A stretch of DNA of 64,000 bases from Escherichia coli (GTDB lineage Bacteria; Pseudomonadota; Gammaproteobacteria; Enterobacterales; Enterobacteriaceae): assembly GCF_003334305.1 (NCBI RefSeq), contig NZ_QOWS01000014.1. One strand, 5' to 3'. This document shows positions 46,795 to 49,926 of this stretch, piece by piece (the stretch's first letter is position 1; each line of letters opens with the position of its first letter). Position numbers and translations under genes: made by a program. The notes beneath the pieces were generated by a model. The model worked only from the letters and a program-made list of their open reading frames with translations. It had not been told where the DNA came from and ran no database searches.

Positions 46795-46833
46795 TGCTAA
46801 CGTCAGATTGTTGACAAAGTGCGCGTCGTTCAT

Positions 46834-46931
46834 GCCGGATGCGGCGTGAACGCCTTATCCGGCCTACAAAAATCTTGCCAATTCAATATATTGCAGGACC
46901 ATGTAGGCCTGATAAGCGTAGCGCATCAGGC
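46834..46931. repeat. BIME-like pair of inverted REP elements downstream of fepA
   Basis: gccggatgcggcgtgaacgccttatccggcctac (46834..46867) and inverted gtaggcctgataagcgtagcgcatcaggc (46893..46931). Confidence 0.8.
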
Positions 46932-46968
46932 AGTTTAGCGTTTGTCATCAGTCTCTAATATGGTCGAC

Positions 46969-47589
46969 ATGAAAACTACGCATACCTCCCTCCCCTTTGC
47001 CGGACATACGCTGCATTTTGTTGAGTTCGATCCGGCGAATTTTTGTGAGCAGGATTTACTCTGGCTGCCGCATTACGCGCAACTGCAACACGCTGGACGG
47101 AAGCGCAAAGCCGAACATTTAGCCGGGCGGATCGCTGCAATTTATGCGCTGCGGGAATATGGCTATAAATGTGTGCCCGCAATCGGCGAGCTACGCCAAC
47201 CGGTGTGGCCTGCGGAGGTATACGGCAGTATTAGCCACTGCGGGGCTACGGCATTGGCCGTGGTTTCCCGTCAACCGATTGGCGTTGATATCGAAGAAAT
47301 TTTTTCTGCGCAAACAGCGACCGAATTGACAGACAACATTATTACACCAGCAGAACACGAGCGACTCGCAGACTGCGGTTTAGCCTTTTCTCTGGCGCTG
47401 ACACTGGCATTTTCCGCCAAAGAGAGCGCATTTAAGGCAAGTGAGATCCAAACTGATGCAGGTTTTCTGGACTATCAGATAATTAGCTGGAATAAACAGC
47501 AGGTCATCATTCATCGTGAGAATGAGATGTTTGCTGTGCACTGGCAGATAAAAGAAAAAATAGTCATAACTCTGTGCCAACACGATTAA
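46969..47589 (+). CDS. entD: 4'-phosphopantetheinyl transferase EntD
   Basis: ORF 46942..47589 (track start is TTG); start placed at the ATG giving MKTTHTSLPFAGHTLHFVEF; an in-frame ATG 9 bp upstream (MVDMKTT) is an alternative. Confidence 0.85.
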   Translation: MKTTHTSLPFAGHTLHFVEFDPANFCEQDLLWLPHYAQLQHAGRKRKAEHLAGRIAAIYALREYGYKCVPAIGELRQPVWPAEVYGSISHCGATALAVVSRQPIGVDIEEIFSAQTATELTDNIITPAEHERLADCGLAFSLALTLAFSAKESAFKASEIQTDAGFLDYQIISWNKQQVIIHRENEMFAVHWQIKEKIVITLCQHD

Positions 47590-47710
47590 TTGACAACATC
47601 TGGTACGATTCGCCCGCAGCCATCACTGACCGCGGGCGAAAGTGTAAAGCAGGTGCCTTACCACTCTGACCTGACAACCGGATATGCGGGGATTGCTCCC
47701 CGCACAACGG

Positions 47711-47863
47711 CTACTTCTTCGGTTCGTAAGCGAGAACAGCCTTAAACTCAATATTACGTTCCTTTACGGTGAACTCACACAGCGAGTCTCCGACCAGAAG
47801 CGTAAATCCCAGTACCGTCAAACACAGCACTATGACTGCCACAAGGGCATATTTCGTCAGCAT
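47711..47863 (-). CDS. hokE: Hok-family type I toxin (copy 1)
   Basis: 50-aa [50 protein letters not shown]; the frame is open a further 33 codons upstream to an ATG at 47962 (MKPQEIF...). Confidence 0.85.
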
Positions 47864-47939
47864 GTTTATATTGCCTCCATGCGAAGAAGGGACTACCATC
47901 CGAGTTGTTGAGGCTCGGAGTGGCAGCCCCAGGATTGAT

Positions 47940-48010
47940 AGAAATATCTCCTGGGGCTTCATCTTTCCAGACCTCAGAGTTAACCTGAAACCGGAAAGCT
48001 TCAGGCACCC
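47940..48010 (+). ncRNA. candidate Sok-like antisense RNA, copy 1 (position inferred)
   Basis: placed antisense to the mok-like start/RBS region by analogy with hok/sok architecture; stem-loop cctgaaaccggaaagcttcagg on this strand; no promoter verified. Confidence 0.25.
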
Positions 48011-48213
48011 GCCGTTATCTTACCCTTCCTCAACAAAATAGCTGTTTATTTATACAGTGAATCCTGTTTCGGACTTCTGTCGGCAAAACTCATCATTGCT
48101 CTTAAAACGAAATCGCCCGCAGCCATCACTGACCGCGGGCGAAAGTGTAAAGCAGGTGCCTTACCATCCTGACCTGACAACCGGATATGCGGGGATTGCT
48201 CCCCGCACAACGG

Positions 48214-48366
48214 CTACTTCTTCGGTTCGTAAGCGAGAACAACCTTAAACTCAATATTACGTTCCTTTACGGTGAACTCACACAGCGAATCCCCGACCAG
48301 AAGCGTAAATCCCAGCACCGTTAAACACAGCACTATGACTGCCGCAAGGGCATATTTCGTCAGCAT
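48214..48366 (-). CDS. Hok-family type I toxin (copy 2)
   Basis: 50-aa [50 protein letters not shown]; 2 aa substitutions relative to copy 1 (V8A, A42V). Confidence 0.85.
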
Positions 48367-48466
48367 GTTTATATTGCCTCCATGCGAAGAAGGGACTACC
48401 ATCCAAATTGTTCAGGTTTGGGTAGGTAGCCCCAGGGTTGATAGAAATATCGTCCTGGGGCTTCAT
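48278..48466 (-). CDS. mok-like overlapping leader ORF (copy 2), out of frame with hok
   Basis: 62-codon ORF starting MKPQDD at the position homologous to the copy-1 MKPQ start, ending inside hok in another frame, as in the canonical mok/hok arrangement. Confidence 0.3.
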
Positions 48467-48514
48467 CTTTCCAGACCTCAGAGTAAACCTGAAACCGGAA
48501 AGCTTCAGGCACCC
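48444..48514 (+). ncRNA. candidate Sok-like antisense RNA, copy 2 (position inferred)
   Basis: homologous position to the copy-1 candidate. Confidence 0.2.
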
Positions 48515-48798
48515 GCAGTTATCTTACCCTTGCTTAGCAAAATAGCTGTTTATTTATACAGTAAGTCCTGTTTCGGACTTCTCACTCCCCATTTGATCAA
48601 CTGAAGCTGAACCCGTTTTTTTCTGCATGCCTCAATCGTCAAAATTCTTCGCCACCAGCCAGCCGTGCCATAACTTGTCACATTGCAAAAGTAGCCAAAT
48701 TGCTTCAGTCACCATCACCAAAAAAAGAAACATTCCAGAACTTCCGCATCTCGCCCAGCCGCTCCGACTTCTATACTGAATAGAAAACGCCAACTTAA

Positions 48799-49926
<1,128 letters not shown>

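Follow-up and report, generated by a model that had tools for sequence, protein, structure and literature searches.

A common single-nucleotide leader indel shifts the upstream reading frame in the duplicated hokE/sokE module of Escherichia coli

Results

Genomic context and anatomy of the two units

The 46.9-49.0 kb segment of the 64,000-nt stretch of E. coli DNA analysed here (referred to as the window) corresponds to the E. coli entD/hokE/hokE/ybdK region, and RefSeq genomes with identical DNA carry the annotations entD, hokE, hokE and ybdK. Between the end of entD (47589) and the start of ybdK (48808) we found two head-to-tail hok/sok units of ~503 bp each, 94% identical in pairwise alignment (Table 1). 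The locus is the known hokE/sokE type I toxin-antitoxin module in duplicated form, and both modules are complete. Full-length matches to the Rfam model RF01794 (gathering score 59) were obtained for the leaders of copy 1 (47855-48010, 86.5 bits) and copy 2 (48358-48514, 86.2 bits). Both 50-aa hok ORFs are intact, with two substitutions (V8A and A42V) separating Hok of copy 2 from that of copy 1, and identical proteins are called HokE by PGAP; the NCBIfam HokA and Hok-family models recovered the Hok ORFs at E-values of 1e-11 to 1e-9, yet below their curated cut-offs.

Table 1. Features of the hokE/sokE locus in the window.
Feature	Position	Strand	Basis
hokE/sokE unit copy 1, entD-proximal (promoter region, leader, hok CDS, fbi element, terminator hairpin)	47610..48081	-	alignment; Rfam; PGAP hokE on identical DNA
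hokE/sokE unit copy 2, ybdK-proximal	48113..48585	-	alignment; Rfam; PGAP hokE
hok CDS copy 1, 50 aa	47711..47863	-	identical to WP_000956465.1, annotated HokE
hok CDS copy 2, 50 aa	48214..48366	-	WP_000956456.1, annotated HokE
Upstream ORF copy 1, MKPQEIF..., 83 codons, in frame with hok, common stop	47711..47962	-	
Upstream ORF copy 2, MKPQDDIS..., 62 codons, other frame	48278..48466	-	
Predicted SokE antisense RNA copy 1	47907..47966	+	homology to K-12 sokE (b4835); fold
Predicted SokE antisense RNA copy 2	48410..48470	+	homology to K-12 sokE; fold
Indel site A, extra base in copy 2 (plus-strand G; C in hok sense)	48452		alignment
fbi-like 3' element copy 1, AGGCACCU	47651..47658	-	predicted pairing with mRNA 5' end GGGUGCCU (48003-48010)
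fbi-like 3' element copy 2	48154-48161	-	equivalent 5' end at 48507-48514
Terminator hairpin copy 2, followed by T-run	48113..48142	-	terminator scan; alignment
Homologous hairpin copy 1, without T-run	47610-47639	-	terminator scan; alignment

In copy 1 the predicted SokE spans positions -44 to -103 relative to the hok ATG and includes the start codon of an upstream ORF beginning with MKPQ (the MKPQ ATG); in the K-12 annotation sokE occupies 607733-607792 and the hokE ATG lies at 607836. As a generic sigma-70 scan of the region returned no promoter at the thresholds used, the hok and Sok promoters are placed by homology only. Minimum-free-energy folding predicted a 5'-3' fold-back (tac/fbi) in both full-length mRNAs, with nucleotides 1-8 pairing with 353-360 in copy 1 and with 354-361 in copy 2. 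The terminator hairpin is followed by TTTCGTTTTA in copy 2 and by AATCGTACC, which has no T-run, in copy 1 and in all single-copy loci. Further afield, the fepA-entD intergenic region (46804-46910) gave an Rfam ES036 match of 40.5 bits, above its gathering score, alongside sub-threshold naRNA4 and Ysr224 matches, all of which are consistent with REP-type repeats.

The window resembles the K-12 hokE/sokE locus (b4415/b4835) in site, flanking genes (ybdK and entD), Hok family, and leader and Sok sequence. While the window harbours two intact tandem units and no insertion sequence, K-12 has one copy, cut on its 3' side by IS186 just past the hok stop, with the fbi element and the terminator gone. 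Insertions of IS186/IS421 at one same point past the hok stop (immediately after GGGGAG[C/T]AATCCC) were registered in unrelated strains (K-12 HMS174, ECE218, HUSEC2011 and MG1655), where they remove the fbi element and the terminator; in ECE218 an IS421 lies on both sides of the hokE unit. As a pair, the two units are similar to the tandem hok 'islets', in which two Hok genes that belong to one identity cluster lie within less than 2 kb of each other as a result of local duplication (bioRxiv 10.1101/2025.08.07.668861). The leader frame polymorphism described below lies outside that recent survey of Hok, which explicitly left Mok ORFs aside (bioRxiv 10.1101/2025.08.07.668861).

A single-base difference changes the upstream reading frame

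At site A the hok-sense strand reads CAGGA-GATATT in copy 1 and CAGGACGATATT in copy 2, the counterpart of the additional base being the junction 47948/47949 of copy 1. The alignment and the ORF positions confirm both the coordinates and the sequences of this 1-nt indel as given in a preliminary description of the locus, together with the ORF geometry reported there: in copy 1 the upstream ATG (47962) and the hok ATG are 99 nt apart, so that they share a frame and an ORF of 83 codons results; in copy 2 the spacing from the ATG at 48466 is 100 nt, and the 62-codon ORF starting there runs into hok in another frame, terminating 89 nt inside it. An in-frame upstream start of the MokC type, sharing the stop of hok, is present in copy 1 and absent from copy 2.

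The probability that the additional base stems from a sequencing or assembly error, a possibility raised when the indel was first noticed, is next to nil. At least 30 complete E. coli genomes, sequenced independently by different laboratories and on different platforms, contain the 2101-bp segment spanning 46900-49000 at 100% identity, and lowering the threshold to >=99% brings the tally to 898 records; both alleles are frequent population-wide, each linked to its own flanking haplotype, and the indel site (GGA[C]GAT) lies outside a homopolymer run. For practical purposes these exact 2.1-kb matches in independent genomes, and the commonness of the alleles, refute an assembly error, and the indel is real.

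The databases reflect both reading frames. The exact 83-aa ORF has been deposited as 'protein HokE' or 'Toxic protein HokE' on 480 contigs, and close variants of it bear the label 'Regulatory peptide MokC'. The entry of the 62-aa ORF as 'small toxic membrane polypeptide HokE' is probably a wrong label; NCBIfam returned no family for this ORF or for an antisense ORF of 110 aa.

Three leader states in Escherichia coli

Within 23 E. coli hokE units (those of the window and of 14 further E. coli loci, picked evenly down the similarity ranking), the distance from the MKPQ ATG to hok takes one of three values. A distance of 100 nt yields the 62-aa ORF overlapping hok; 99 nt, the in-frame state of K-12 hokE and of copy 1, yields the 83-aa ORF (or 17 aa, if a stop intervenes); and 98 nt yields a 22-aa ORF that ends at a TAG 30 nt before hok. 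Two indel sites, A and a second one termed B (CCAAACC[T/C/-]GAAC), account for the three states, and thus the frame of the upstream ORF is not a conserved property of hokE. Phase variation was considered as a source of the difference and rejected, as neither site lies within a long homopolymer or repeat tract.

The frequency of the states was assessed by exact-haplotype BLAST in 5,426 complete genomes (90-92-nt queries, >=99% identity band); the resulting counts, which are approximate since they derive from BLAST identity bands and not from a full census, were ~2159 genomes for the K-12 type (99 nt), ~1836 for the 100-nt leader haplotype, ~1107 for the type of window copy 1 (99 nt) and ~353 for the commonest 98-nt haplotype. 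The in-frame 99-nt state is the commonest one in E. coli. Two copies were present in 25 of 60 evenly spaced records (~40%). A count of records with >=80% coverage was discarded as a number of two-copy genomes, because single-copy loci also join to 97% coverage.

In all eight sampled two-copy E. coli loci (the window among them) the copies differ in their ATG-to-hok distance, and the leader haplotypes swap between the entD-proximal and ybdK-proximal positions among strains. Chance and shared ancestry, or recombination or selection, may underlie this regularity, which could hint at selection for heterogeneity, against neutrality. At two loci (ST131 and UPEC-774U) a gene for an SDR-family oxidoreductase, instead of entD, adjoins the entD-proximal hokE. 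On the strand opposite hok copy 2 and its leader (48335-48604, plus strand), PGAP places a 'hypothetical protein' (WP_009008364.1) that it flags as 'frameshifted' or partial in genomes with 98- or 99-nt leaders; broken by both loop indels and without a matching NCBIfam family, it is probably a spurious ORF.

Our literature search retrieved no paper describing the three-state leader polymorphism, which is a within-family allelic detail.

Polarity of the leader states

In representative genomes of other Escherichia species the hokE locus also resides between entD and ybdK. One copy with a distance of 99 nt was found in E. albertii and in Escherichia sp. E1V33, and two copies in E. whittamii (99 and 99 nt), Escherichia sp. 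MOD1-EC7003 (98 and 98 nt) and strain SCPM-O-B-8794 (99 and 98 nt). The 100-nt state was encountered in none of the Escherichia outgroup copies examined and was seen only in E. coli, and the E. albertii and E1V33 leaders are similar to that of window copy 1. This distribution of leader sequences suggests that the 99-nt state of copy 1 is probably ancestral and that the 100-nt state of copy 2 probably arose within E. coli.

The comparison of hokE leaders across genomes had been proposed at the outset as a way to decide between the two polarities, and its outcome (99 nt in E. albertii, E. whittamii and E1V33) points to copy 1. The preliminary description had viewed copy 2 as canonical and copy 1 as an altered fusion. 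Its observation that the MKPQ ORF stands in a different frame to hok in each copy holds; its polarity is probably to be reversed, with 99 nt being the majority and K-12 state and occurring in outgroups, and 100 nt having been seen only in E. coli.

The upstream ORF and the mok of related systems

Like R1 hok/mok/sok and K-12 mokB/hokB, hokE has an RF01794 leader, a predicted tac/fbi fold-back and a cis-antisense Sok with a terminator hairpin. In both K-12 hokB and hokC the leader reads CCGAGGCC...ATG, with a GAGG Shine-Dalgarno (SD) motif and the ATG at -58 and -57, respectively, beneath the 5' end of Sok; the mok start of R1, too, is preceded by a GAGG SD and lies 58 nt ahead of hok (PMC9841398). 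At the homologous place hokE reads CCTGGGGCTGCC..., with GGGG in the position of the motif and no ATG, GTG or TTG. Thus, a canonical mok (GAGG plus a start ~57-58 nt upstream of hok) is lacking in hokE, as it is in several relatives from other genera. The MKPQ ATG lies 40 nt further upstream than the mok start, at -99, at the 3' end of the Sok-complementary region, whereas the mokC ATG sits under the 5' end of SokC. The reading of the MKPQ ORF as canonical mok hence fails, since it is not positionally homologous to the mok of R1, hokB or hokC.

The MKPQ ATG corresponds to GACGAAG or GAAAAG in the paralogues, which became GATGAAG in hokE. Every aligned hokE unit of Escherichia has this ATG, and HokE-like loci of genera such as Citrobacter, Klebsiella and Kluyvera lack it. 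Its sole SD-like motif, a GAGG 9 nt upstream, is embedded in a 15-bp stem in every predicted fold, which argues for weak use of the MKPQ ATG and for RNA structure as a possible reason for its invariance.

With regard to frame, the canonical systems themselves are divided. The K-12 mokC start lies 57 nt ahead of hokC and in frame with it, so that MokC consists of MLNTCRVPLTDRKVKEKRA followed by HokC (69 aa, i.e. 19 + 50 aa), and in K-12 mokC/hokC (gef), as in copy 1, the leader ORF shares the toxin stop and amounts to an N-extended Hok; K-12 mokB begins out of frame, 58 nt ahead of hokB, and in R1 and mokB/hokB, as in copy 2, the upstream ORF overlaps hok in another frame. Because the in-frame mok is the curated state of K-12 mokC/hokC, an in-frame leader already has a precedent. 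In Klebsiella and in Kluyvera intermedia a canonical mok ATG lies at -51, in frame (67 aa), and in Kluyvera genomosp. 1 it lies at -50 and opens an 18-aa ORF overlapping the start of hok; the K. intermedia and genomosp. 1 loci differ by a 1-nt hairpin-loop indel (CCCAGACAG vs CCC-GACAG). The occurrence of in-frame and out-of-frame leaders across relatives indicates that, family-wide, there is no fixed frame between leader ORF and hok.

RNA structure and signatures of selection

The consensus fold of 18 distinct leaders comprises three local hairpins and an anti-SD hairpin (CCUUC/GGAGG) over the hok SD. In this consensus structure site A (column 63) occupies an unpaired position flanked by stems 53-61/79-87 and 64-67/72-75, within the internal loop of hairpin 2 (GCCCCAGG..GAUA-UUUC-UAUC..CCUGGGGC), a hairpin common to the hok mRNA and, on the opposite strand, the Sok terminator; site B (column 101) falls in the apical loop of hairpin 3. 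The stems are all kept across leaders, pairs 96:110 and 98:108 of hairpin 3 showing compensatory AU<->GC changes, and the predicted Sok folds of the two copies are near-equal (-25.6 vs -24.8 kcal/mol). Polymorphisms are synonymous to nonsynonymous at 16:11 in the hok frame, as opposed to 7:20 and 8:19 in the other two frames. The synonymous excess in the hok frame, along with the kept stems, makes selection visible on Hok and on RNA structure; in the same polymorphism data no selection is visible on the frame or the product of the upstream ORF.

These results bear on the notion that one of the copies is a decaying pseudogene and the indel a part of its degradation, which we deem improbable. 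In favour of such decay are the missing T-run past the copy 1 terminator hairpin and the inactivity of K-12 chromosomal hok loci in post-segregational-killing assays mentioned in bioRxiv 10.1101/2025.08.07.668861 with reference to Pedersen and Gerdes 1999. However, the 3' end of copy 1 is the same as in single-copy loci, both units have kept a leader that scores in Rfam, the Sok hairpin and the fold-back, and their intact and nearly identical Hok ORFs go along with the excess of synonymous polymorphism.

The most diverged part of the units is the Sok 5' tail (47907-47931 vs 48410-48434) with its target hairpin, in which 7 of 25 nt differ; the target hairpins lie at ~47901-47930 and 48404-48434, and the differences in their stems are compensatory AU<->GC changes. 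Predicted Sok-target duplexes reach -58.9 and -52.7 kcal/mol for the cognate pairs and -27.2 and -37.2 kcal/mol for the cross pairs. On these modelled energies, there may be partial insulation between the Sok RNAs of copy 1 and copy 2.

Discussion

We favour, with a probability of roughly 0.7, the reading in which the indel is an old, tolerated polymorphism at an unpaired leader position, the frame of the upstream ORF is not conserved, and the Hok peptide and the RNA architecture are. Under this reading hokE conserves the Hok peptide and, on the RNA level, the fold-back of the 5' and 3' ends, the hairpins of the leader, the target of Sok and the anti-SD hairpin that covers the hok SD. In R1, mok translation is needed up to the hok SD, and its continuation beyond the hok start, like the Mok peptide itself, is dispensable (PMC9841398). 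Transposed to hokE, ribosomes that start at the MKPQ ATG in the 99- and 100-nt states would cross the anti-SD stem, and those of the 98-nt state would stop at the TAG (-32 to -30) with their footprint still over CCUUC (-27 to -23). Through read-through in the former and the footprint in the latter, all three frames could open the hok SD, and such opening, irrespective of frame, could activate hok initiation in a manner that matches R1. Ribosomes of the 99-nt state, having met no termination, would additionally make an 83-aa N-extended Hok similar to MokC. Whether this holds or the MKPQ ATG goes unused, a functional difference between the two copies need not be assumed, although one may exist. 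Hok is lost in R1 when mok terminates prematurely ahead of the hok start (PMC9841398), and by the same token the 98-nt (22-aa) and 17-aa alleles might differ functionally from the rest.

In the account given by the preliminary description, copy 2 represents the canonical overlap and copy 1 is frame-fused, being regulated differently or producing an 83-aa N-extended Hok from the MKPQ ATG. On its side, the ORFs are arranged as stated, the MKPQ ATG is shared by all Escherichia hokE units, falls within the SokE-complementary region and has a GAGG 9 nt upstream, and an in-frame precedent exists in MokC, an annotated regulatory protein. We nevertheless find this account doubtful, given that the in-frame state is the majority, likely ancestral and K-12 state, that the MKPQ ATG is not the positional homologue of the hokB, hokC or R1 mok start and has its putative SD sequestered in a stable predicted stem, that the 98-nt (22-aa) state and the 17-aa variants leave no single frame conserved, and that the R1 data render the frame past the hok start irrelevant to coupling (PMC9841398).

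Somewhat more credible, if still on the unlikely side, is that the MKPQ ATG is never used and that hokE is translated from its own SD or by coupling to an in-frame ATG at -36 (which extends Hok by 12 residues and is the same in both copies), leaving the indel without translational consequence. No unit carries an indel from the -36 ATG onwards, an ATG at -32, -33 or -36 is found in most relatives from other genera while the -99 ATG is absent outside Escherichia, the SD of the MKPQ ATG is buried in a predicted stem, and all three frames are tolerated. Yet the -36 ATG has no recognisable SD, and it is the reverse complement of the likely -10 box of Sok (TACCAT), which could in itself explain its conservation. 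Our literature search yielded nothing usable on a described 'mokE' or on ribosome profiling at hokE.

A bolder proposal, which we regard as hardly probable, would have the hokE leader ORF as a non-homologous replacement of mok, with the three frame states selected as settings of toxin output and two-copy strains preferentially keeping differing settings together with diverged, mutually insulated Soks.

Under the reading that we prefer, the indel finding is ordinary, a common and old polymorphism in an unpaired RNA loop. It brings little new biology, as the module is annotated, the in-frame ORF is in the databases and the family tolerates either leader frame. Its practical bearing is on annotation: hokE is without a canonical mok, the ORF that begins at the upstream ATG should not be named mok by analogy, and ORF-based annotations (an 83-aa 'HokE', a 62-aa 'HokE' and an antisense 'hypothetical protein') flip with two loop indels. 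Should the three leader states differ in Hok output, they would offer a naturally occurring set of alleles in which to study translational coupling in type I toxins.
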